The notes: a model not told the origin generated them from the letters alone. DNA of 59,681 nt from an uncultured Thermoplasmata archaeon (GCA_964535805.1 CAZHUM010000004.1:1-59681); one strand, 5' to 3'. Positions 15,358 to 48,102 are shown, counted from the stretch's first letter. Made by a program: numbers and translations.

Positions 15358-18300
15358 ATGGGTTTCCTAGATTCCATAGACAAGTTGATAGATAAAGAAA
15401 AAAGAACGCTCGCCAAGGCAGGAAAGTACCTTGACAAGGCAAAGAATTTACATCAGCAGGGTGATATTCAAGGTTCCAAGGAGTACTGTGACCGAATATG
15501 GGACCACCTCAAGAAGCAAGAGTCCAGTTTCGAAAACATGATCGATCAATTATCGGTTAAGTACGACGAACTGGGTTGGATGTATTATCATATCGGTTTC
15601 GAGGACAACGCACTCGCCGCTGAAGAAGAAGCGATCCGTATCAACCCGAAGAACGTTGATGCGCTTAATCACAAAGCTCTCATCAACGCTGAGAGATCCA
15701 GGTACGACGATGCGTTGAATATCCTCGAGAACGCTATAGCTGTCGACCCTCATAACAAGTACACGTTGGGAAACAAGGGTGACGTTCTCAAAGCGATGGG
15801 AAGAAAGGAAGAATCTGTAAAGACCTATGAAAAGGCACTCCAAATCGATCCGACCGACATATCATTTTACAATAAGATACTGGAGATCCAACCCAATGAT
15901 TCCAAAACATGGGCAAACAGAGGTTGGGCCCAGAGGAAGAACGGCGATTACGAAAGTGCTATCGAATCTTTCAATAAGTCTTTGGAGATAAACCCCAATC
16001 AAGAAAAGATATGGCTGTACAAGGGAGTTACGCTTAGGGAAGTTAACAAACCAAACGACGCCGTCGTGTGTTTCGACAACGGTATCGAGATCAACCCTGA
16101 TAGGAAGAGTTTATGGGTGGAGAAGGGAAGGACACTGCATCAATTGGGGAGAAAGGAGGAGGCTCTCGAAGCTTTAACTAGAGCGTTGGAGATAGATTCA
16201 GAGGACAAAGAATTGTGGAATAAAAAAGGTACTCTGTTGTACGAATTAAAAAGATACAGGGACGCTGTAGCTGCCTTCGACAAAGGCTTAGCCATCGACT
16301 ATGAAGACATAAGGTTACTCACAAACAAGAAAGAAGCGTTGAAACCCCTGGGTAAGTACGAAGAACTTATCAGAGTCTCCGATAAAATATTGGAGAGAAA
16401 TCCAACAGATGCAACGACCCTCTACGATAAAGGTGTAGCTCTTCAAAGATTAAAAAGGTACGACGAAGCCATAGAGCAGTTCGAGGAAGCTCTTACATAC
16501 AATCCAAAAGACACCCACGCACTGCGCCACGAAAAGGAGATATACAAGAACCTAAAGAAATGGAAAGAGGTAGTACGTGTAGCAGACAGGATCAACGTTA
16601 TCGATGACGGGATCTACGATGCGTGGTATGACAGAGGGGTAGCTCTTTTAAAATTAAACAACTCCGAACTAGCTCTTGATAGTTTCAACAGATCCTTGGA
16701 GATAAAAGAAGATGATAAGAACAGTCTAGAAGGAAAAAAGGAAGCCCTTAAGGAACTAAGAAGGTACGGCGAAGTTATCACGGTCTGCGATAGACTGATA
16801 TCGATGGACCCAGATAATATCGAGGCTTATTTCGATCGTGCTAGGTCTTACGAGAGAACTAACAACTACGAGAAAGCCATACGAGATTTCGAGAAAGGTC
16901 TCCAGATGGACGACAGCAGGTACGAAAAATGGAATGAAAAGGGTCTCAGCGAGTACCGACTGGGCAAGTACAAAGATGCGCTCAACAGCTTCCAAAAAGC
17001 CATCGGGCTCAACCCGAAAGACAAGAGGTTCTACAACAACATGGGGCACTGCCTCAGCAAGATGGAGAGATACGAGGATGCCATCGATGCTTACTCAAAG
17101 GCTCTAAAATTGGACCCCAGAGATAAGCGGATATGGTACAGCAAGGGTCTCGCACAAGAGGGGTTGAACAGATACGAGGAAGCCGTCGTTTCATACGAAA
17201 AAACACTTGAGATCGACCCACAGGACGACAAAGTTTGGTACAGCAAAGGTATCGCCCTTGAATGGTTGGATAGGTACAAAGACGCCATCGACGCATTCAA
17301 TCATTCCATCAAACTCAACCCGTCACACAGACTCGCTTACATAAGAAAAGGTGTGGCACTCACCAAGATAGATAAACATGAACAAGCTGTCCGAGCATTC
17401 GATAGGGCACTCTCTATGGAGCCTCGCGATGTCAAACTGCTGGAGAAGAAAAAGGAATCGATCAAGGAACTAGCTAGATGGAGTGATTTGATACAAACGT
17501 GTGACAGTATCATAGAGCTCGACACCAACAATGCAGAGGCGTGGAGAGACAAGGGGGATGCACTGAGCCATCTAGGTGAAGCTGAATCCGCTCTTTACTG
17601 CTTCGAGAGCGCACTGGAGATAGAGGAAAACATAGAGGACATGAAGAAGGCGAAAGAGCTCCTTAAGGATCTCAAGAGGTCCGAAGAAGTATTGAAGTAC
17701 AGTGAGAGGATAATCGATATAGAACCAGATAATATAGAAGCTTGGCAGGACAAAGCTATAGCACTGAAGTTCCTCGATGAAAGAGAAAAGAGTCTCGAGG
17801 CATTCGATAAGGCTCTTGACCTGGATCCGAATTCAAAAAAGATGTGGTTCCAAAAAGGTCTAGTCCTGGAACATCTCAACCAGTACGAGAATGCTATGAG
17901 GGCGTATAACGAAGCACTCGACCTGGATCCGAACGATGTGGACGTTATCAACAGGAAGGCAGAATCCCTCCGTAAGATGGAGAGGTACGAGGAAGCCGCA
18001 CAGTGGTACCAGAAAGCCATCGACCATCAGCCTGAAAATACCCAGTTCTTGGATATGAAGGGCAGATGTTTGATAGAGACGGGCGATCTAGAGGAGGCTG
18101 AAGAAGTGTTCGAAAGGTCTCTGGAGATCAACGACCAGAACGGTCTTACCTGGAAGTACAAAGGTCTGCTCTCCGAAAGACTGGAGAAGTACGAGGAAGC
18201 CATCGGAGCCCTCGATACCGCTGTAAAACTAGGTTTTGATGACAAAGGTGTTTGGACGACCAAAGCGGAATGCTACGATTACCTTGGAAGGAAAGACGAT

Positions 18301-19560
18301 GCTATCAGATCTTACAACATGGCTATTGACAAGGATCCACAGGACGCAAAACTGTTCTTCAAAAGAGGAGAGATCGAATCGGAGATCGAACGGTACGAAG
18401 ATGCAGCCGAGAGTTTCTACGAGGCGACGATCATCGACCCAGAGTACGAAGAAGCCTGGTTCGAACGCGGCAGAGCGCTTGAAGCTTTAGAACGTTACAA
18501 CGCGGCAATAGAAGCTTATGATAAAGCCATAGGTCTTGATTCCGATGACAAGTATGCTTGGAACAACAAGGGAAGGGTACTTTTAGAAATGGGAAGAAGT
18601 GATAAGGCGGAAAGAGCTTTCCAGAAAGCCCTAGATATAGACACCGGTTTCGAATCCGCGAATGAAGGTCTAGAGATAGCCGAGGAGAAAGAAAAACAAA
18701 GGAAGCTTGAGAAGTATGCGAAGAGGGTGTTGGAATTCGAATGTGTGAGGAACCGACCGATATCAAAAGAGGAAGCATTCAAGAAGTGCGATATACCGTA
18801 CAATTTCATCGATGAAGTATTCACATACCTTTCCACGAGAGAACCGGTCGATTTCGGTGCTTTGGAAGAGGAAGAACAGAAAAAGTACGAAGCTGCTTCG
18901 CGTGCGGTCATCACTAAGCTTGCCACGCACTCTAGAGACAGCCTTTTGAACAATGGAGTAAGATTATGCGACATAGTAACCAAATATCCAGATAAATCCA
19001 TCGAAGAGTGCAAACACGTTCTAGAGTATATTAAAGAAGTATCGGAGATGGATGTTCCAACTGACCAGATCGATGAGAAGACGGAGAGACTCTTAAGAAA
19101 AAGAGTGTTGGACCTACCTCCGGAGAAGAGGGACTTCCTCAGCCTTGTCTCAAATCTAAATATAGGTATATATCAAGCCAAGAAAGTACAGGAAGCGCTG
19201 AAGAAATTCGAGGGGGCCGATTACAGACCGCCGAGTACTAAGATATCATCTTTGGTCAAAGAGAGTCCTATGAGGGGAGAAACAGTGGTCAAGCCAGAGG
19301 AGAAAGATGAGAAAAAAAAAGAAACCTCTAAAGAACCACCCAAAGAAGTAGAAAAGAAAGAAGAGGAAGAAGAGAAACCGGAAGAAAAGAAGGAAACCAA
19401 GTGTTACTTCTGCGGAGACCCAACCAACTACAAACACGACTGTGGTGACCTGCCCCTCTGTCCACAGTGTGAAGAAAAGCACGCTGGTGAGATATGTCCT
19501 GAATGCGGAGAAGTTATAGGCAGCTCGAAGAAGAAAACTGACGACGATATGCGGTTGTGA
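15358..19560 (+). CDS. Giant TPR-repeat protein (1400 aa) with a K/E-rich linker and C-terminal Cys-rich zinc-ribbon module
   Basis: About 30 consecutive 34-aa TPR units (W/Y..G.AL..L.RYEEA...Y.KALE.DP.). C-terminus is KCYFCGD...CPQCEEKHAGEICPECGE. Confidence 0.9.
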   Translation: MGFLDSIDKLIDKEKRTLAKAGKYLDKAKNLHQQGDIQGSKEYCDRIWDHLKKQESSFENMIDQLSVKYDELGWMYYHIGFEDNALAAEEEAIRINPKNVDALNHKALINAERSRYDDALNILENAIAVDPHNKYTLGNKGDVLKAMGRKEESVKTYEKALQIDPTDISFYNKILEIQPNDSKTWANRGWAQRKNGDYESAIESFNKSLEINPNQEKIWLYKGVTLREVNKPNDAVVCFDNGIEINPDRKSLWVEKGRTLHQLGRKEEALEALTRALEIDSEDKELWNKKGTLLYELKRYRDAVAAFDKGLAIDYEDIRLLTNKKEALKPLGKYEELIRVSDKILERNPTDATTLYDKGVALQRLKRYDEAIEQFEEALTYNPKDTHALRHEKEIYKNLKKWKEVVRVADRINVIDDGIYDAWYDRGVALLKLNNSELALDSFNRSLEIKEDDKNSLEGKKEALKELRRYGEVITVCDRLISMDPDNIEAYFDRARSYERTNNYEKAIRDFEKGLQMDDSRYEKWNEKGLSEYRLGKYKDALNSFQKAIGLNPKDKRFYNNMGHCLSKMERYEDAIDAYSKALKLDPRDKRIWYSKGLAQEGLNRYEEAVVSYEKTLEIDPQDDKVWYSKGIALEWLDRYKDAIDAFNHSIKLNPSHRLAYIRKGVALTKIDKHEQAVRAFDRALSMEPRDVKLLEKKKESIKELARWSDLIQTCDSIIELDTNNAEAWRDKGDALSHLGEAESALYCFESALEIEENIEDMKKAKELLKDLKRSEEVLKYSERIIDIEPDNIEAWQDKAIALKFLDEREKSLEAFDKALDLDPNSKKMWFQKGLVLEHLNQYENAMRAYNEALDLDPNDVDVINRKAESLRKMERYEEAAQWYQKAIDHQPENTQFLDMKGRCLIETGDLEEAEEVFERSLEINDQNGLTWKYKGLLSERLEKYEEAIGALDTAVKLGFDDKGVWTTKAECYDYLGRKDDAIRSYNMAIDKDPQDAKLFFKRGEIESEIERYEDAAESFYEATIIDPEYEEAWFERGRALEALERYNAAIEAYDKAIGLDSDDKYAWNNKGRVLLEMGRSDKAERAFQKALDIDTGFESANEGLEIAEEKEKQRKLEKYAKRVLEFECVRNRPISKEEAFKKCDIPYNFIDEVFTYLSTREPVDFGALEEEEQKKYEAASRAVITKLATHSRDSLLNNGVRLCDIVTKYPDKSIEECKHVLEYIKEVSEMDVPTDQIDEKTERLLRKRVLDLPPEKRDFLSLVSNLNIGIYQAKKVQEALKKFEGADYRPPSTKISSLVKESPMRGETVVKPEEKDEKKKETSKEPPKEVEKKEEEEEKPEEKKETKCYFCGDPTNYKHDCGDLPLCPQCEEKHAGEICPECGEVIGSSKKKTDDDMRL

Positions 19561-40103: not shown

Positions 40104-43100
40104 TTAGGTCTGTTCAGAATCGATTACATCATCGTTCTCATCTATTTCTAACATCTCTTCTCCTGATCCATCAAAGTCTTCGGGTTCCGATGTTTCTTCG
40201 TAATCTCCTTCGAAATCTTCTTCGTAAAGCTCTTCATCTTCTGCCATTTCTACATGAGGAGCACCGATTTTCCAGTAAGCGAGTCCGATAAGTACTAACA
40301 ATATCAACAGTGCAGCCAATGCGTAGAAGAGGTTCGTTTTGTACACTGGTATCGGATATCCACCGAACTCTACCTTTTCTTCCCCGGTCGAAGATAACGT
40401 GACTTCTTTACTCTCATCTAGGTCGACCTCCGTTAACATGTATGTTGTTTTAAATGCAGCTTTTATGGTGTAATCGTCCCCAGCCGGTAGTTTGAAAGTA
40501 TATTCTCCGTTCTCGGTGTATCCACTCCAAATCCTATCACCGCTTTCAACTACGACATATACGCCGGAAAGTTTCCCGTCTGTATCTTCGGTTACCACCG
40601 TCAAATAATAAACATCGCTCCGAGCATCAAGATGCCAGCTTTCCTCACTGTTAGTGACGTTGACCGTGTCTTCATATATCGGGCTGCCAAGCCATGTAAC
40701 ATAGATATCCCATTCTGAAGCGGGTATCCTAAACGTGACCCGACCGTTCTCATCGGAGTAATTAGACTCATAAAGTTTATCTCTATCCAGATAGGAAACT
40801 CTGATCAATGCATCTTCGAGAGTTTGTTGATCATCGTCCAAAACATCTACTGTAAGATAATACACGTTTCCCTGTACATCCATCGTCGCGTCTCCATCTA
40901 GGTTTATAATCTCGTTGTGTATCTTTATGTCGTTCCAGAACACAGTGATCGTTTGTTCCCCGCGAGGCGATCTCATTACAACACTGCCGTTTCCGTCGGT
41001 CAAATATCTTGCTAGTGTGTTACTTCCCAGAGGCAGTTCCGAATGTAGGTTCTTGATGAGAGCTTTTTCTATAGGTACTCCTTCGACGTCTGTTATCTTG
41101 TATTCAATGTAGTATATCTGTAGATTTATATCCATATGATCGGGTGACAGTATGGATTCCGATACTGTTATACTGGATTCGAACACATTAACGTTCTTCC
41201 AATGGACTAGCAGATCAACTGTCCCGTCCGAATCGAATGGAGTAGGTGTTCTGAAGGAGAAATAGCCGTTCTCGTCACTTACACCGGAAATCAGGTTCTT
41301 TCCGTATACGCTCACATCGACCGACGCACTGTTGACCGTTTCACCTCTTGAATCCACGAATCTGAGAGTTACATAATATACATCGACCGCATTTATGGTG
41401 TACGTTCCAGAGTGATCCACAGTTATGTCCGAATCGTATATATTTACACCTTTCCACGTAACGATGAATCGGTGTGTTTCACCGGGCAGCCTCGCTTGAG
41501 CCAACCCGTTCTCATCGGTTATATCCGAATCCATAAACGCTCCATGGTGATAGATCTCTATCTCACCACCAGATATAACGATATCCTGGCTGTCCAAAAG
41601 TTCGATATCTAGATGATATACACTGGTGGCTATGGTCTTATTATCATTGTCGGTTATGGATAATGAATCGTGGTAAACCTCGATATTTTTCCAATAGGCA
41701 TACACATCGATGGAAACCCCTGGCAATCTAGATTCCGGTGTGTTACCGTCTGCATCCGTCACAACGCTGTTCAACCTATCAGTCCCAAGAATATATTCGA
41801 TCCTGGCGTTCTCCAAAGGCTCGCCTACGTCGTCCACCGCTTTTATCGATAGATAATATACTTCACATGATATATCCATATCACCATTCGCATCCAGAGT
41901 GGTGCTCTGAGAATATACCTCCGCACCCTTCCAGCTAACTGTGATGTCAACATTCGAACCAGGCAGGCGTGCATAGGCTTCACCGTTTTCGTTGGATACG
42001 TTGCTGTACAAGATACCAGCCGATGGATGTTCGACGGATATTCTTCCGTTCTCTAGAGGAATTTCCCTGCTATCTACAAGCCTGAACGTTATGTGATAAA
42101 CACTACACTGTATCTGTACCTCCGGCATACCCGCCTGTACCGTTATTCCTGCTGTACCTACAAGGACACCTCGCCAGTACGCTTCTATGGTGTGGTCTCC
42201 CAAAGGCAATCTGATGGTAACGTCTCCGGAGTCGTCCGTCTCTCCACTGTTTGCGAAAGCGTCCGTTTCATCGGTATATGCCGCTAGCAGTACGTTCTCA
42301 AGGTCTTCACTGAGCGAATCGTCGGTGTGGAAATCAACGTAGTATATCTCCAAAACGACCACTTCGCTCCTGTTATCTGTTAAATCCCAATTCGAAACAT
42401 TTCCAACGTTCACTCCGTGCCATCTAAACGTGAGATTGTAACCGAAGCCGCTCTCCGTCCACGGCAGCCTAAAGGTGACGTTACCTTCGTTGTCCGTCAG
42501 GTCAGCGTCTGCTGTACTCTGGGTATCGTTGAACGTGACGATGGTGTGAACATCGGGCACCGCGACATCATTTTGGTCCTTAGTCGTTACCGTCAAGTAA
42601 TATATGTTCCCGTTTATGGTGAACTGGTCGTTGGAATCTACACGGTGTACCGTAGAATTGACCTCTCTGCCCAGCCATTCAGTTTTTATAGAATAATTTC
42701 CTATCGGTAATTGATCGATAGATGCATATCCAGATTTATCCGTTATCGCTTTTAGCAGGGTTCCGTTCGGATGACCGATGAACAGGTTAGCGCTGTTTAC
42801 TCCCTTGTGTGCAGAATCAAGAACCTTGTACTGAGGGTAGAATACGTCGCAGTTCAAAGTCACTGGATTGTTCCATGTTACATCCATATCGACTTCGATG
42901 ACGGTTTCGTTGACTAATACGTCCTGCCAATAGACCTCGATGCTGTAATTACCTCCTCTCAGTGTGATATTAAGATAACCGGTTTCGTTGGTGTAGTTAT
43001 GTGTAACGTATACGCCAACTTGAGAATCGATCTCGACCCTAGCACCATCCAAGGGGTTGTCCATGGAATCGATGGTCTTGAAATTAACGAAATACAGTTT

Positions 43101-44141
43101 TCCGCCGATGAAGAACGTTTTGCTTTCGCTCTCGAGATGACCACCATAGGTTTCGTCGTCCGGATGATCTGGGTATCTGTAGTGGTAGCCTGTGTTGTCC
43201 ACTGCTTCCAGGGTGACGGTGTACTCACCTTCCGACGCTCCCCCGTAATCCCATGGATAGGTGTAATTGTTGACGTAGGTGGTCGAATTCCCGGAAACCT
43301 TTATCATGGGCTCATCCTCGAAAACCGTACCGTTTGGACCTTCCAGAGTCAAGTTAACCCATTTGATATCGTATCCACCGAAGGGATTCGTTATGGTCGT
43401 GTTGAAATGTATGGTGTGGTCGGAAGCGGAGAGCGGGAACGTATAGTTCTCATCGTAGGTGTAATTGAGCACTTTGAACGAGTCTATATCGATGTGGGTA
43501 GGGGTCTCAACCTCGAGTCTGCTGGGAAAACTTTCGTTTCCGAAAGCGATATAAAGAGTTGGTTCAACCGCTTTATTTAAGGTGATGTTCACCCTGATAG
43601 AGTTATTTTTTGGGATGATCTTATCTATGCCATCACAGCTTTGAGATAGTTCTACATAGTGACCGGGTATGTTCGTAATCTGTCCTGATTCCTTGTAACA
43701 TATATCGCTCTCCCATGAACCGGATGTACCGTTTATCTCGTCCACATCTAAGATAAAGTTATCCAACTTATTTGTACCGCCGGGTGTGTCAGTGATCCTA
43801 ATCCAGATATATGTTGTTAACGTACCGTTTATGTGAAAATTATCAACGAAGTTAGGTTCGAGATCCCAAGTTAATGTTCTCGACCCTCCGGTTTCGATCA
43901 CTTCGCGTTCACTCGTTCCCATGGTCGTGTTCATCTGATAATCACTCCCCGAGAGTGAAGATGTTTCATTGTGATAGTATAAGGTTTTTGTTTTTACTTC
44001 ATCGTCAGAAGCTGTTATATCTTCAAGTATCGTATCATTAGATGACATCATCTCGGGCTCGTTTAGGTTCCCTGAATTATAGCTACCTGCAATTATCAAC
44101 AACATTGTAATCAACAGTCCAGCAATCAATAATTTTTTCAC
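40104..44141 (-). CDS. Giant envelope protein A (1345 aa): signal/anchor helix, sequon-rich N-terminal region of about 330 aa, 11 tandem CarboxypepD_reg/prealbumin-like modules, C-terminal TM helix, acidic tail
   Basis: MKKLLIAGLLITMLLIIAG N-terminus. Repeats follow the pattern YYLTV..D..G.PL..A.V......TD.NG...RLP.G.Y.I.V.W.G. GGYPIPVYKTNLFY precedes the TM. GTG start overlaps the stop of gene B (GTGA) with GGAGG 8 nt upstream. Confidence 0.85.
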   Translation of the reverse strand: MKKLLIAGLLITMLLIIAGSYNSGNLNEPEMMSSNDTILEDITASDDEVKTKTLYYHNETSSLSGSDYQMNTTMGTSEREVIETGGSRTLTWDLEPNFVDNFHINGTLTTYIWIRITDTPGGTNKLDNFILDVDEINGTSGSWESDICYKESGQITNIPGHYVELSQSCDGIDKIIPKNNSIRVNITLNKAVEPTLYIAFGNESFPSRLEVETPTHIDIDSFKVLNYTYDENYTFPLSASDHTIHFNTTITNPFGGYDIKWVNLTLEGPNGTVFEDEPMIKVSGNSTTYVNNYTYPWDYGGASEGEYTVTLEAVDNTGYHYRYPDHPDDETYGGHLESESKTFFIGGKLYFVNFKTIDSMDNPLDGARVEIDSQVGVYVTHNYTNETGYLNITLRGGNYSIEVYWQDVLVNETVIEVDMDVTWNNPVTLNCDVFYPQYKVLDSAHKGVNSANLFIGHPNGTLLKAITDKSGYASIDQLPIGNYSIKTEWLGREVNSTVHRVDSNDQFTINGNIYYLTVTTKDQNDVAVPDVHTIVTFNDTQSTADADLTDNEGNVTFRLPWTESGFGYNLTFRWHGVNVGNVSNWDLTDNRSEVVVLEIYYVDFHTDDSLSEDLENVLLAAYTDETDAFANSGETDDSGDVTIRLPLGDHTIEAYWRGVLVGTAGITVQAGMPEVQIQCSVYHITFRLVDSREIPLENGRISVEHPSAGILYSNVSNENGEAYARLPGSNVDITVSWKGAEVYSQSTTLDANGDMDISCEVYYLSIKAVDDVGEPLENARIEYILGTDRLNSVVTDADGNTPESRLPGVSIDVYAYWKNIEVYHDSLSITDNDNKTIATSVYHLDIELLDSQDIVISGGEIEIYHHGAFMDSDITDENGLAQARLPGETHRFIVTWKGVNIYDSDITVDHSGTYTINAVDVYYVTLRFVDSRGETVNSASVDVSVYGKNLISGVSDENGYFSFRTPTPFDSDGTVDLLVHWKNVNVFESSITVSESILSPDHMDINLQIYYIEYKITDVEGVPIEKALIKNLHSELPLGSNTLARYLTDGNGSVVMRSPRGEQTITVFWNDIKIHNEIINLDGDATMDVQGNVYYLTVDVLDDDQQTLEDALIRVSYLDRDKLYESNYSDENGRVTFRIPASEWDIYVTWLGSPIYEDTVNVTNSEESWHLDARSDVYYLTVVTEDTDGKLSGVYVVVESGDRIWSGYTENGEYTFKLPAGDDYTIKAAFKTTYMLTEVDLDESKEVTLSSTGEEKVEFGGYPIPVYKTNLFYALAALLILLVLIGLAYWKIGAPHVEMAEDEELYEEDFEGDYEETSEPEDFDGSGEEMLEIDENDDVIDSEQT

Positions 44142-47100
44142 AAGATCACCTCCTTCTTTTTGGCTATCAATACTACCCCCGCGGCTATTACCACTACGAA
44201 GAGTAATGCCACATAGAATAGATTTGTCGTGTAAATCGGTCTCGGATAATCTTCAAAGTTGACAGTCATTTCCTTGCTGCCGTCAAGTGATACGTCTTCC
44301 GACTTATCCTGTTCTATGTCGGTCATCATCTGGGTCTTTTTCAACCTGGCTTCTACGGAGTAATCACCTTCGACTATCTGTGCGAACGATACTTTACCCT
44401 TTGAATTAGAAGTGTTCGTTGCGACCACGTTACCCGAACTATCGTACAAGGTAACTTCGACCCCGCTAACAGGACCGTCTTTTCCCTTGACGGTCAACCT
44501 GATATAGTGCACTGATGTGCCCACCGAGGTTTGTTTATCTGTGTTCAAATTGGATATATCCTCGGTTCCTACCCGTTTACCTTTCCAATAAATGTTCGCT
44601 GTCCAGTCTCCTTTGGGTAATCTCGGTACAGCTATACCGTGTTCCGTCGAAAGAGTAGCGAAAGTTGTCCCACCCTTATCTTTCATTATCACGTTGGCAC
44701 CGTCGAGAACGGTTCCTTCAGAATCCGTCACCGTTAACTGTAGATAGAAGATCTCGCAGGCGATGGTGTGATTCGAGTCCTGTGATAGGTCATAGTTTGT
44801 ATCCGCTACTTTAATACCCCTCCAGTAAGCCTCTAATCTCAACCCGCCTCCGGGCAACCTGAATGTGTTTTGTTCACTGAATTCCTTTTCATTTATCATG
44901 TCCATACCTGCGGGTAAGTCAGAATGGTAAATTGAAACGGAAAGACCGGTTACTGGATTCTCTCTCGAATCCTCGCCGGATACGGTCAGATAATAAACAT
45001 CACATGCCAAGGGTATATCTCCGCTTGACTCCATCGTTTTAACGCTCTGGTGAACCGTTACCCCCTGCCACTTGATGGTTATAGTAAAGTCGAAATGAGG
45101 TATCTTCACAGGGTACTCACCGAGGCTAGAAGTGAAACCGCTGGAAAAGGTCCCTCCATTGTATTCTACCACTATCTCCGCTTGCGAGATCGGACTGTCT
45201 TGAGAATCCTCTGCAACTAATCTAACGTGGTATATATCCAAATCGATGGTGACGTTCTTGTCCGTATCAACTGTGAGATCGGTATTTTTTACGTTGAACC
45301 CTTTCCAATATAAGTTAACTTGGTATGTTTCCTTAGGGATCCTTAGATATACCACACCTTGTGTGTCGGATTTACCGGTGAACACATTTTCACCGTTCAG
45401 TAATAGATTGACTGTGGCTTCAGATACGCTTTCTCCCATGTCATCGACTACGGTCATCTCGAGATCGTAGATATCAGCATACAAAGTAACTGAATTATCC
45501 CCTTGTGAACCAACCATCTGGTGATCCACGGTACCGATAGATACATCTTTCCAGCTTCCTTCGATAGTGAAGTTTTCTACTGGGAGTCTGACCCTTAAAA
45601 GACCGGATGGATCCGATATACCGCTTTCGATGAGTTCACCGTCATGTATTATGGATAAACTTACATCTTCGACACCGTTGTCCTGGGAATCAACTACCGA
45701 TATATCCAAGTAATAAACGTCGCAGACAGCCGTGAAATCCTCACTAGCTTGGACCGTTATACTCCCATTATCATAGACGTTTATACCTTTCCAGTCGATG
45801 AGGATATTAACATCGGTCGCAGGGAGTTTAGATACATATTCTCCTTGTTCGTCTGTCATGCCCACGTCGACAACTTCTCCATCGATCATCACGGACACGC
45901 TTGCATTGACGAGTGGGTTGGCATCCACCGTATTGTCCACCGCGATGATGTTCAGATGATAAACATCGGTAGTGATGGTAACATCCGTATTCGTCTGGCT
46001 TATCACCTCCTCTTCAGTAGCTACCAATGTGTTTATCCAACTCACTTCGAATCGATGATTCCCTCCAGCGAGTTTGATGAAAGCTTTCCCTTCCATATTG
46101 GTTGTAACAGAACCCATATTCCTACCTGTCTCAGTATAACGGACTCCAACGGAAGCATCCGATAGGGGGTCGCCTTCGGAATCCAAAACGTTGATCGTGA
46201 CTTTGTATATCTTAGCCGTTACCGTCATCGTTCCACTGGAGTCGACCGTTATCACATCGCCGTATACCTCCACGTCGTTCCAGGTTATCTCTAATAGATA
46301 ATCTGCACCGGGGAGTCGTGATCGTGCGATGCCGTTCGTGTTGGTCAGCCTACTGTCCGCGGCGACCATCGTATCGTTATAATAAAATACCACCAAAGCG
46401 TTTGAAACGGGGTCGCCTTCCGTATCCTTGACGTTCAGTTCTATGTTGTAGATGTCCACCGTGATATCGAAGATATCGGATGAATCTATGAAAACATCTC
46501 TCTCACCAACCGCTCTACCGTTCCATTCTACATTAAGTGTATATCCTCCCTCGGCGGTTTGTATAAGGTCTATCTCGCCGTTCTGATCGGTTCGCAGCGG
46601 AGTTATGCTCGTAGTACCGTTCGGGTGGGTAACATACACGTTAGCATCCTCCACCACGTAACCGTCGGCGTCCGATACCTTTATGGTGGGATAGAAAACA
46701 CCGGCGGTCAAGTTGTAAGGATCATCCCCCGTTCTGTTCCCGGTCACACTAACGTCTATCGACCTGTTGACACTTACTTCGACGTCCTGCCAAATGATAG
46801 AAATAGTGTAATTCACGGCGGCTAAACTTATATTAGTAATACCGCTGCCGTCGGTTTCATTCTGTGAGAATATTCTAACGTCCCCTTCGACTCTCAGCAA
46901 AACCGTCGTTTTCGGCAGTATGTTATCCTGATCGTCCACAATCCTGAAATTTACGAAATGATCCAATCCCGCTATAATGAACTCGTGATGTCCATAGACA
47001 TCGTGCCCCCCGAAATCGCCGGTATTATACCACGAACGCAGACCCGTGTTATCCACGGCACTGACGTTAACATTGTAAGTTCCATCGGGATGGTTACTGT

Positions 47101-48001
47101 AATTCCACAGCACTTCATATCTGCTTTCGAACGTATTGAAGAAACCATATGTTTTATTCTGTGGGTGTAGTGGAACAGAATCTATGATCGTTCCTGACGG
47201 ACCAGTCAATGTTAGATTGACCCATTCTATGTCGTAACCTCCGAAAGGATCGGTAACGGTGGCTTTGATGGTGATATTTTTATTGTTTTCCTCCGGAGAG
47301 AAAGTTGATGTTACGTTTCCTTCGTGGTCAACGGTGTAAACATCTTCAACCTTGATATAGTTTCTTGAAGGTAAAGTGAGACGTGAATCTCTAGTTTTAT
47401 TACCCCAGCTTATTGAATAATTGCAGTTTGCATTACCCCACAGGACATATTCTATCTTAATGGTAGATTCTTTAGAAACACTGTAATTGTCTATATTCAT
47501 ATCGCCATAGATCTTTTTCCAGTCGTTGTCCGGAAACGTCGTCGAATCAAGTCCACCATTGTATGCGATCTGTGTTTCATCACCTTCGGGTGTGACCTCG
47601 TATAAATAATAATGTATATCTGCATCTGTGGGAGTGCCTGTTGTTTTCCTAGCCCACATGGTTATGTTAGTTTCACCGTCTAACGTAAGATTTCCAGCTA
47701 ATTGTGGAAAAAGGTACCACTGTGCAACGACTTTAAAAGTACTGTCCTTGACTGCGTTCCCGTCTCCGGTGAAAGGAGAAGTCGTATTGTATATCTGTTT
47801 CGTCGTTTTGTTGCCTATATCTACCGCTCTATCTGTGGAATAAAGATAGAATTCTTTCTGCTTCATGGGCCGGGATCCATATACTGTTTCCGATTCTTTT
47901 TCGTTGGTAATAATATCCGTTTTTTCGGCGTTCGAAATCACCAACGAGACTCCCATCAATAAAATGACGCAAACCAAAACTATCATTAATTTCATTTTCA
48001 T
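44138..48001 (-). CDS. Giant envelope protein B (about 1287 aa): paralog of A with the same architecture and a short basic tail
   Basis: MKMKLMIVLVCVILLMGVSLVISNA signal-like N-terminus from ATG 48001 (GAGGG upstream); the track ORF extends to 48070. 11 repeat modules. DYPRPIYTTNLFY precedes the TM, followed by KKKEVIL. Confidence 0.85.
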   Translation of the reverse strand: MKMKLMIVLVCVILLMGVSLVISNAEKTDIITNEKESETVYGSRPMKQKEFYLYSTDRAVDIGNKTTKQIYNTTSPFTGDGNAVKDSTFKVVAQWYLFPQLAGNLTLDGETNITMWARKTTGTPTDADIHYYLYEVTPEGDETQIAYNGGLDSTTFPDNDWKKIYGDMNIDNYSVSKESTIKIEYVLWGNANCNYSISWGNKTRDSRLTLPSRNYIKVEDVYTVDHEGNVTSTFSPEENNKNITIKATVTDPFGGYDIEWVNLTLTGPSGTIIDSVPLHPQNKTYGFFNTFESRYEVLWNYSNHPDGTYNVNVSAVDNTGLRSWYNTGDFGGHDVYGHHEFIIAGLDHFVNFRIVDDQDNILPKTTVLLRVEGDVRIFSQNETDGSGITNISLAAVNYTISIIWQDVEVSVNRSIDVSVTGNRTGDDPYNLTAGVFYPTIKVSDADGYVVEDANVYVTHPNGTTSITPLRTDQNGEIDLIQTAEGGYTLNVEWNGRAVGERDVFIDSSDIFDITVDIYNIELNVKDTEGDPVSNALVVFYYNDTMVAADSRLTNTNGIARSRLPGADYLLEITWNDVEVYGDVITVDSSGTMTVTAKIYKVTINVLDSEGDPLSDASVGVRYTETGRNMGSVTTNMEGKAFIKLAGGNHRFEVSWINTLVATEEEVISQTNTDVTITTDVYHLNIIAVDNTVDANPLVNASVSVMIDGEVVDVGMTDEQGEYVSKLPATDVNILIDWKGINVYDNGSITVQASEDFTAVCDVYYLDISVVDSQDNGVEDVSLSIIHDGELIESGISDPSGLLRVRLPVENFTIEGSWKDVSIGTVDHQMVGSQGDNSVTLYADIYDLEMTVVDDMGESVSEATVNLLLNGENVFTGKSDTQGVVYLRIPKETYQVNLYWKGFNVKNTDLTVDTDKNVTIDLDIYHVRLVAEDSQDSPISQAEIVVEYNGGTFSSGFTSSLGEYPVKIPHFDFTITIKWQGVTVHQSVKTMESSGDIPLACDVYYLTVSGEDSRENPVTGLSVSIYHSDLPAGMDMINEKEFSEQNTFRLPGGGLRLEAYWRGIKVADTNYDLSQDSNHTIACEIFYLQLTVTDSEGTVLDGANVIMKDKGGTTFATLSTEHGIAVPRLPKGDWTANIYWKGKRVGTEDISNLNTDKQTSVGTSVHYIRLTVKGKDGPVSGVEVTLYDSSGNVVATNTSNSKGKVSFAQIVEGDYSVEARLKKTQMMTDIEQDKSEDVSLDGSKEMTVNFEDYPRPIYTTNLFYVALLFVVVIAAGVVLIAKKKEVIL

Positions 48002-48102
48002 ATTATTCCCTCTTTTTTCATAAGAATGAAGATAGCTATTTAGGTTATTTATGGTACGACTATCGAACAATATCCGATATCTTTCTTAAAATAATCACTA
48101 AT

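Follow-up and report, generated by a model that had tools for sequence, protein, structure and literature searches.

We have analyzed a pair of adjacent genes, B and A, on the minus strand of a 59,681-nucleotide stretch of DNA from an uncultured Thermoplasmata archaeon (GCA_964535805.1, CAZHUM010000004.1:1-59681; hereafter the window). They are predicted to encode two giant membrane-anchored surface proteins, of a kind already known as immunoglobulin (Ig)-rich archaeal envelope glycoproteins. The closest described architecture is that of PySLP from Pyrobaculum arsenaticum (Thermoproteota; bioRxiv 10.64898/2026.08.21.746120). Like A and B, PySLP has a signal peptide, a long tandem array of Ig-like domains whose number varies among lineages, and a conserved element just before a single C-terminal transmembrane (TM) helix; its tail is short and basic, as in B, and its stalk holds the outer part of the molecule tens of nanometres above the membrane, as is proposed here for A and B. 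The 19-domain PySLP reaches 37 nm. PySLP is, however, a single polypeptide that forms hexamers, whereas A and B are a translationally coupled, length-matched pair of paralogs, and no sequence relationship between the two systems was detected. The distal part of PySLP is a lattice core and crown, that of A and B a jelly-roll and Ig head. The juxtamembrane element is a predicted beta-hairpin in PySLP and a proline-rich motif in A and B, to which A adds an acidic tail, and the PySLP hosts are hyperthermophiles, whereas those of A and B are mesophilic or halophilic Thermoplasmatota.

As a two-gene system the pair comes nearest to SlaA and SlaB of the Sulfolobales (PMC10903991), where two adjacent genes likewise provide one layer with heavy N-glycosylation (predicted for A and B). 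The SlaA/SlaB canopy stands about 30 nm high on a membrane-anchored stalk, and the stalk and canopy suggested by the A and B sequences may be likened to these. SlaA and SlaB are not paralogs and only SlaB, which has a coiled-coil stalk, is anchored; in A and B both partners are anchored, both have heads and the stalks are all-beta repeats, and no homology to SlaA or SlaB was found in Pfam or the Protein Data Bank (PDB). The csg glycoprotein of Haloferax volcanii (PMC8640222) resembles A and B in its Ig-like domains, N-glycosylation, acidity, C-terminal anchoring and halophilic host, but it has six domains, is the product of a single gene and is lipid-anchored through PGF-CTERM and archaeosortase, whereas A and B have no CTERM match and A has 52 residues past its TM helix. 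In the same phylum as A and B, Cuniculiplasma and Oxyplasma, which are Thermoplasmatales without an S-layer, bear an "exterior protein layer" of about 20 nm that is dense, non-crystalline and made of membrane-anchored surface proteins (PMC12448462). A protein coat thus need not be a lattice. No homolog of the A/B head was found in Thermoplasmatales by a pattern-based genome scan.

In their order of domains, A and B come closest to eukaryotic NOMO (nodal modulator, PF22904), a rod in the lumen of the endoplasmic reticulum with 12 Ig-like or transthyretin-like domains. It shares with A and B a signal peptide, a row of CarboxypepD_reg-type domains (about 12 in NOMO), a lone C-terminal TM helix and a short tail, and has been proposed to act as a distance-setting rod, a role also suggested here for A and B. 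It has neither the jelly-roll/Ig head nor a paralogous partner, and it belongs to another compartment and another domain of life. A and B are members of none of these groups. No S-layer family matched either protein in Pfam or NCBIfam; sequence searches of the PDB (phmmer with B, both head profiles and a Nitrosopumilales homolog) gave nothing meaningful, and A and B lack detectable homology to SlaA/SlaB, Methanosarcina DUF1608, halobacterial csg, NmSLP and PySLP. A first interpretation of this DNA made without database searches (the sequence-only reading) had recognised no characterised archaeal S-layer family in the pair, which agrees with the Pfam, NCBIfam and PDB sequence searches and with a Foldseek search of the head.

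Comparison with related genomes shows B and A to be a conserved, coupled and co-evolving pair of predicted type-I surface proteins whose distal end is predicted to be rich in glycans. The proposal that they make up a two-component system is strongly supported by the retention of the pair, of the Shine-Dalgarno site embedded in B and of equal repeat numbers in at least 12 genomes. An S-layer identity is plausible: the signal peptide, TM helix and excess of N-x-S/T sequons predict that both proteins are secreted, surface-anchored and N-glycosylated, as S-layer proteins usually are. We give about even odds to a reading in which a single glycoprotein, with B and A as its two subunits, forms a heterodimeric stalk-and-head envelope coat. 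The novelty lies in a translationally coupled pair of paralogs whose modular stalks are strictly matched in length, and in their uncatalogued head module. The features of the locus, all on the minus strand, are as follows.

40104..44141, minus strand: gene A, 1345 amino acids, GTG start; predicted type-I membrane protein with an acidic cytoplasmic tail
44138..48001, minus strand: gene B, 1287 amino acids; predicted type-I membrane protein with a short basic tail, KKKEVIL
47924..48001, minus strand: B signal peptide, residues 1-26, MKMKLMIVLVCVILLMGVSLVISNAE; hydrophobic N-terminal segment, presumably cleaved
46964..47923, minus strand: B head, residues 27-346; jelly-roll and Ig-like subdomains, with DPFGGYDIEWVNLTL and AVDNTG in the Ig-like one
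44261..46963, minus strand: B stalk, residues 347-1247; 11 tandem CarboxypepD_reg (transthyretin-like) repeats, by repeat profile and Pfam PF13620
44153..44260, minus strand: B juxtamembrane motif YPRPIYTTNLF, kept family-wide, and TM helix
43098..44072, minus strand: A head, residues ~24-348; two-subdomain module as in B, head profile score 419
40386..43097, minus strand: A stalk, residues 349-1252; 11 tandem CarboxypepD_reg repeats
40263..40385, minus strand: A juxtamembrane motif YPIPVYKTNLF and TM helix
40107..40262, minus strand: A cytoplasmic tail, 52 amino acids, 25 D/E, 0 K/R
44138..44141, minus strand: GTGA overlap of the A start (GTG, 44139-44141) and the B stop (TGA, 44138-44140)
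44144..44154, minus strand: AGGAGGTGATC, Shine-Dalgarno site for gene A inside the last codons of B (K-E-V-I)
48008..48012, minus strand: Shine-Dalgarno-like GAGGG, 6 nucleotides before the ATG of gene B; orthologs have GAGGT there
48036..48069, minus strand: promoter-like region of the operon, putatively formed by TGTTCGATAGTCGTACCA (48052-48069) and TATA-like CTAAATAG (48036-48043)

A and B are paralogs: they align colinearly with 28% identity over 1221 amino acids (E 2e-131), which bears out the shared architecture noticed in the sequence-only reading. Each protein has one N-terminal and one C-terminal hydrophobic segment, in keeping with the N-terminal anchor and single C-terminal TM helix described there. 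A repeat hidden Markov model (HMM), built iteratively from A and B, found exactly 11 abutting units of 76-88 amino acids in each protein, the same number as in the parse of the sequence-only reading. By Pfam score the repeats belong to the CarboxypepD_reg, or transthyretin-like, family PF13620 (E 1.5e-34 and 118.6 bits for A, E 5e-35 and 120.1 bits for B, gathering cut-off 32.3), with weaker matches along both bodies to Big_1, MG and SpaA of the same clan. No Pfam family matched the first ~340 residues of either protein. The conserved blocks reported for this region, DPFGGYDI.WVNLTL.GP and AVDNTG, are seen in the head alignments, and the tail of A is as acidic, and nearly exactly as long, as had been stated. 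The start of gene B is best placed at the ATG at 48001 (MKMKLMIVL...), which fits the N-termini of orthologs better than the upstream TTG at 48070.

The two genes lie in different reading frames and are tightly joined. In addition to the GTGA overlap there is a GGAGG within AGGAGGTGATC, 7 nucleotides upstream of the A start, so that the translational coupling first proposed for this junction has its signals in place, and these are kept in relatives. We take AGGAGGTGATC to be an 11-nucleotide complement to the 3' end of archaeal 16S rRNA. The same arrangement of a Shine-Dalgarno site within B occurs at 17 other B-to-A junctions besides that of the window, some of them on duplicate contigs. At these junctions B ends in ...(K/R)KKEV(I/F/L), encoded by AAA AAG GAG GTG AT, and the A start overlaps the B stop or comes 0-2 nucleotides after it. 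The KKEVI tail of B is conserved because the ribosome-binding site of A lies in those codons; the basic tail thus appears to be doubly constrained, as protein and as ribosome-binding site. Here a ribosome-binding site that overlaps the coding sequence has fixed a motif in the protein, which cautions against reading such tails as sorting signals.

The B-to-A pair is found in at least 12 related Thermoplasmatota genomes (Candidatus Halarchaeoplasmatales and kin), which answers the question of phyletic co-occurrence raised by the sequence-only reading. The paired loci are L001, L002, L003, L004, L006, L007, L008, L015, L018, L019, L021, L022, L023 and L025. A B-type gene lies directly upstream of an A-type gene in every related contig that is long enough, and the order, B then A, is constant. 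The flanks are unrelated: for example, the window, L001 and L007 have cca/gcvP, L003 has topoisomerase VI, L002 has HerA and HD proteins, and L006 and L008 have an AAA ATPase. Co-occurrence, fixed order and translational coupling are what would be expected of an obligate two-subunit surface protein. The closest named homologs come from "Candidatus Saliniplasma" and from Thermoplasmata metagenome-assembled genomes (MAGs) of soda-lake and hypersaline sediments, which belong to Ca. Halarchaeoplasmatales, Thermoplasmatota (PMC11332174); DNA of the window itself occurs in microbial-mat and sediment DNA metagenomes.

A maximum likelihood tree of 72 head domains places the A and B heads of the paired loci in separate clades. 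The B core (13 rows) and the A clade (18 rows) each have 100/99 support, and with L025_B and L026_B included the B clade has 15 rows and a support of 98/76. The L025/L026 lineage is present in both clades; the A/B duplication is therefore old, predates the L025/L026 split, and both copies have been kept since. Bathyarchaeia and Nitrososphaerota form a clade apart from Thermoplasmatota, made up of single genes for proteins of ~500-740 amino acids with 2-4 repeats (6 in one Bathyarchaeota member). Single relatives with 11-15 repeats and an acidic tail are found at L005, L027 and L028. Acidic tails also end the A orthologs of L001, L002, L004, L006, L007, L008, L009 and L015 (through protein P0008); the L003 ortholog has none.

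The number of stalk repeats, counted with the repeat HMM, is the same in both members of all 12 complete coupled pairs, over a range of 5-15. The counts (B/A) are given below.

11/11: the window, L001, L002, L003 and L015 (its A is P0008)
10/10: L004
7/7: L007 and L019
5/5: L025 and L026
14/14: L006
15/15: L008

Shuffling the labels reproduced all 12 matches in 0 of 200,000 trials. The count for L006 A (GCA_003553425, PWEF01000112.1) is 14 when the gene is read through one in-frame TAG after repeat 12 (~15888-15893), beyond which the same frame goes on to encode a further two repeats, then the juxtamembrane motif, a TM helix and an acidic tail; the TAG could be a sequencing error, the mark of a recent pseudogene or a site of read-through. 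When each repeat was assigned to its best match among window repeats 1-11, the changes were also found to be generally congruent in position. Both A and B of L007 keep repeats 1-5, 10 and 11, the extra units of L006 and L008 lie between 10 and 11 in A and B alike, and L009 A keeps repeats 1-4, 10 and 11. Repeat number has changed at least five times, each time in both genes. As a control, the uncoupled tandem pair at L034, which arose by an independent duplication in another Thermoplasmata lineage and whose two heads are sisters in the tree, has 4 and 6 repeats. The equal numbers and congruent positions in the coupled pairs, set beside this unequal control, point to co-evolution of A and B, and their simplest cause would be a parallel, in-register A-B heterodimer, or heads that have to be level with each other in order to meet. 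A and B provide a natural case in which selection holds the domain counts of two proteins equal.

A conservation profile over four 11-repeat orthologs peaks in the Ig part of the head (55-56%), in repeat 11 of A (54%) and in the juxtamembrane and TM region of B (52%); its low points (32-39%) are repeats 6-9 in A and repeats 7-8 in B. In our reading the two ends of each protein are specialised, and the stretch between them is an expandable spacer that has to be of the same length in A and B. Some A orthologs (L006 10001-12930 and L009 485-2160; P0011 and P0018) carry an N-terminal extension of 220-630 amino acids before the head, composed of repeated CARDB-like modules with faint matches to Pfam CARDB, Y_Y_Y and PLipase_C_C; their B partners do not.

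The distribution of sequons suggests which end of the molecule is exposed. A has 33 and B 27, where composition-preserving shuffles yield 14.7 +/- 3.4 (z 5.4 and 3.6), so the "dozens each" first noted was about right; none of seven cytoplasmic or membrane proteins of the window has such an excess, and A and B are likely to be glycosylated. The heads hold 15 (A) and 13 (B) of these sites. Density is ~4 per 100 amino acids on the head and first repeats (repeats 1-3 of A, mostly repeat 1 of B) and falls to ~1 per 100 on repeats 5-11, with a like gradient in four orthologs of each protein. Since an oligosaccharyltransferase at the membrane can reach any sequon, the gradient reflects selection, and we infer that the membrane-distal third is an exposed, glycan-covered face, with the lower stalk packed or shielded.

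The head module was modelled with AlphaFold2. With 72 homologs the B head gave a pLDDT of 90.5 and a pTM of 0.86, superseding an earlier model from 11 sequences (pLDDT 69.9). The modelled B head is a beta jelly-roll (~residues 45-225) followed by an Ig-like sandwich that bears the invariant DPFGGYD and VDN.G together with two widely conserved sequons, NTT and VNLT. The top PDB matches in Foldseek were to the non-catalytic C-terminal jelly-roll of CocE/NonD/PepX proteins (PF08530 PepX_C; 3i2j, 3puh), with E 6e-8 and a root-mean-square deviation of 3.7-4.8 A over ~230 columns. The N-terminal subdomain of the head shares this fold at only 10-13% identity, and A and B have no hydrolase domain, so the likeness is one of fold and says little about function. 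Next came the MAM-Ig module of RPTPmu (2c9a), in which jelly-roll and Ig follow in the same order as in the head, then RbmA, CBM22 and GH2 sugar-binding domains. No S-layer structure was among the top 50 matches of the head, the stalk repeats being outside this fold search. An HMM check of the N-terminal region had been called for, and it finds no Pfam family for the head, with weak touches only to PepX_C (5/72 heads) and Y_Y_Y (7/72). A search of 1.84 billion representatives with the head profile gave 180 clusters with E < 1e-30 and, at the looser limit of E < 1e-10, 650; in some cases the match lies within a protein of 2000-4500 amino acids. A module that folds confidently in the model, is absent from Pfam and recurs in ~180 clusters (E < 1e-30) and three archaeal phyla merits definition as a family. 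In unrelated giant proteins of 2000-4600 amino acids (P0073, P0077, P0112, P0121, P0123 and P0130) the module occurs internally in 2-5 copies; it thus appears to be a mobile structural module that is not solely N-terminal.

At the other end of the molecule, the motif (Y/F)P.P.(Y/W).T..F directly before the TM helix is found throughout the family, including Bathyarchaeia (FPPAIWTTTGF), and takes the form YP.P.Y.TNLF in both A and B. The sorting models of NCBIfam (PGF-CTERM, PEF-CTERM, VPXXXP-CTERM and other CTERM models) did not match full-length A or B, and the isolated C-termini of the two gave none at E <= 10. The C-terminus of B has a chance-level likeness to LPXTG-type anchors (E 0.05-0.2, far below the cut-off); its tripartite shape owes the basic tail to the embedded Shine-Dalgarno site. 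Between 26 and 128 residues follow the TM helix in A-type proteins and single relatives, which makes archaeosortase-type cleavage unlikely. The juxtamembrane motif was considered as a known sorting signal and rejected, as no CTERM model matches; it is better read as a structural element at the membrane interface.

From these features a course of assembly can be proposed. One bicistronic mRNA would be made, and ribosomes ending B would re-initiate on A through the near-perfect Shine-Dalgarno site, giving an output of perhaps ~1:1. Both proteins would be exported by their signal peptides and anchored by the single C-terminal helix, with the acidic tail of A on the cytoplasmic side. A and B would stand side by side and in register, their 11 + 11 transthyretin-like domains making a double stalk in which, judging from the co-variation in repeat number and position, the middle domains would serve as a length-setting spacer. 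The two conserved jelly-roll/Ig heads would sit on top of the stalk, some tens of nanometres away from the membrane, and sequon placement suggests that most N-glycans would be carried on the heads and first three stalk domains, as an exposed outer face. In the least certain step, lateral contacts between heads would give a canopy-type layer over a pseudo-periplasm, S-layer-like whether crystalline or not. A dense coat without a lattice is a realistic outcome, since cultured Thermoplasmatales have a non-crystalline exterior layer.

A bolder form of this proposal is a new type of archaeal cell wall, namely a canopy of obligate heterodimers of two ancient paralogs whose height is set by a co-evolving "double ruler" of 5-15 transthyretin-like domains. 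We offer it tentatively and think it somewhat doubtful. If it were true, one could foretell how wide the pseudo-periplasm of a given lineage is from the number of stalk domains in both genes, and the conserved jelly-roll/Ig head, of which Bathyarchaeia and Nitrososphaerota have single-gene relatives, would represent a lattice or contact module that is new and pan-archaeal. The co-variation predicts that envelope spacing scales with repeat number, from 7 to 11 to 15.

Several observations weigh against a heterodimeric coat, or against its likeness to an S-layer. Short single-copy relatives with 2-4 repeats exist in Bathyarchaeia and Nitrososphaerota. The Nitrosopumilales member of the family matched no chain in the PDB, which presumably includes the solved S-layer protein of N. 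maritimus; the ancestral role of the family was therefore probably not that of an S-layer, and the one experimentally identified S-layer protein of Nitrososphaerota is a different molecule. In L004 the lost repeats differ (about 5 in A, about 7 in B), so that selection may act on total length rather than on strict domain-by-domain pairing, and L026 lacks the embedded Shine-Dalgarno site yet has 5/5 repeats. No RNA run was found to contain the locus, which occurs in DNA metagenomes only. The glycan genes beside the operon adjoin it only in the closest relatives (L001, L007 and L019) and not at other paired loci. Finally, the membrane-distal head is the most conserved part of A and B, whereas the exposed face of PySLP is its most variable part (preprint 10.64898/2026.08.21.746120).

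A conserved head is what one would expect of a binding site, and A and B might instead be a heterodimeric adhesin or ligand-binding spike of moderate abundance that forms no wall, with heads that bind a polysaccharide, a mineral or another cell (mat neighbours, DPANN). The galactose-binding-like jelly-roll of the N-terminal subdomain, related in fold to CocE/PepX C-terminal domains and with CBM22 among its matches, is in keeping with this. So are the invariant DPFGGYD and VDN.G, the recurrence of the module in other giant multi-domain proteins, the microbial-mat source, and the likeness of the head as a whole to RbmA, a biofilm matrix protein, and to 2c9a, a MAM-Ig module of adhesion. Against an adhesin, the locus is inherited vertically, with one copy in nearly every genome, and behaves neither as strain-variable nor like an island; the supposed binding head bears the heavy glycan cap, ligand-binding residues could not be identified, and a coat explains the strict length matching equally well. 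On balance we think an adhesin unlikely. The expandable spacer of 5 to 15 units suggests another possibility, a molecular ruler like NOMO, whose rods set the width of the pseudo-periplasm or keep another outer layer (glycan, sheath or a different S-layer protein) at a fixed distance without themselves forming it. NOMO and the two proteins share a general plan, in which a signal peptide is followed by ~11-12 transthyretin-like domains, a single TM helix and a short tail, and B orthologs have weak or faint precomputed Pfam matches to PF22904 (NOMO1-like_2nd). Neither protein of the window has such a match (for B, none at E <= 0.1), a pure spacer has no need of a large, conserved and glycosylated head, and no partner layer is known, so we regard a simple ruler as quite improbable.

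It might also be supposed that A and B are independent or alternative paralogs, such as variant surface proteins, each forming homo-oligomers, and that their co-transcription is a legacy of tandem duplication. Uncoupled tandem duplicates did arise independently elsewhere in the family (L034 and L036), and many relatives function as single genes. Against this stand the age of the duplication, the retention of both copies always in the order B then A with the ribosome site nearly always in B, the changes of repeat number (at least five) that always affected both genes together, and the distinct conserved tails, KKEVI in B and acidic in A. This explanation seems very remote to us, and the two-subunit coat remains our preferred reading of the pair.

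To our knowledge no envelope protein is known from the uncultured, salt-adapted Ca. Halarchaeoplasmatales, and we found no paper on the envelopes of this group; the cultured Thermoplasmatales, for their part, are noted for having no S-layer. The conserved, coupled pair with its predicted glycan cap is the obvious first candidate for their cell covering.

The sequence-only reading also placed the operon directly beside a glycan and sulfation locus. Genes for a MurJ/Wzx-type flippase, a sulfatase-fold protein, a sulfotransferase and several GT2 enzymes do adjoin the operon, following rpe and two GT2 genes, and in this genome they speak for an envelope glycoprotein, but beyond the closest relatives this adjacency is not kept. 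All-against-all clustering of neighbouring open reading frames (ORFs) from 69 loci found no gene conserved alongside the pair; the linkage is thus local to this genome and its nearest relatives, and was dropped as a feature of the family. Apparent conserved neighbour clusters were rejected as antisense ORFs inside the giant genes or as local synteny. The ORF at 15358-19560 on the plus strand (1400 amino acids) was considered as a third surface protein and likewise rejected, being a cytoplasmic TPR protein; it consists nearly wholly of TPR repeats, with a lysine/glutamate-rich linker and a Cys-rich, zinc-ribbon-like C-terminus (CYFCG...CPQC...CPEC).

Upstream of gene B, at a distance of 35-50 nucleotides, most paired loci have the element TTCGAAT(A/T)TTGT(A/T)A(A/C)ATAA-N-CTTATAA. 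The window copy of its 18-mer has 1 mismatch and is unique within the window. Other copies lie at L001 6071, L003 6090, L004 921 and 444, L006 5338, L008 3087, 13085, 14356 and 16589, L018 3662, L021 5859, L022 4516 and L023 1708, and the upstream half is duplicated in L002. The element also precedes several other genes whose products begin with signal- or TM-like segments. It could be the consensus promoter of the lineage with an upstream element, or the mark of a shared envelope regulon.

Other genes recur near the surface-protein genes of the family. A secreted subtilase (Peptidase_S8, some with fn3 repeats) adjoins the surface-protein gene in 7 loci from Thermoplasmata and Bathyarchaeia (L005 8385-9713, L018 1303-3612, L021 3770-5815, L026 1105-2217, L044 2-2269, L058 4480-5691 and L059 4426-5576), with none in the window; it could be a maturation protease, or secreted proteins may merely cluster. 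An A-type protein that hardly differs from the one at L002 (Ca. Saliniplasma halalkaliphilum) is encoded on L030 (PWHM01000123.1), a 2.8-kb contig that bears the label Candidatus Nealsonbacteria; this contig is almost certainly archaeal and mis-binned into a bacterial MAG from the same soda-lake sediment. Five loci of different lineages have a double winged-helix regulator (HTH_24 / HTH_HVO_0163_N) within a few kilobases of the surface-protein gene (L008 16046-16570, L025 2627-3166, L027 4056-4622, L032 1055-1621 and L036 2542-5481).

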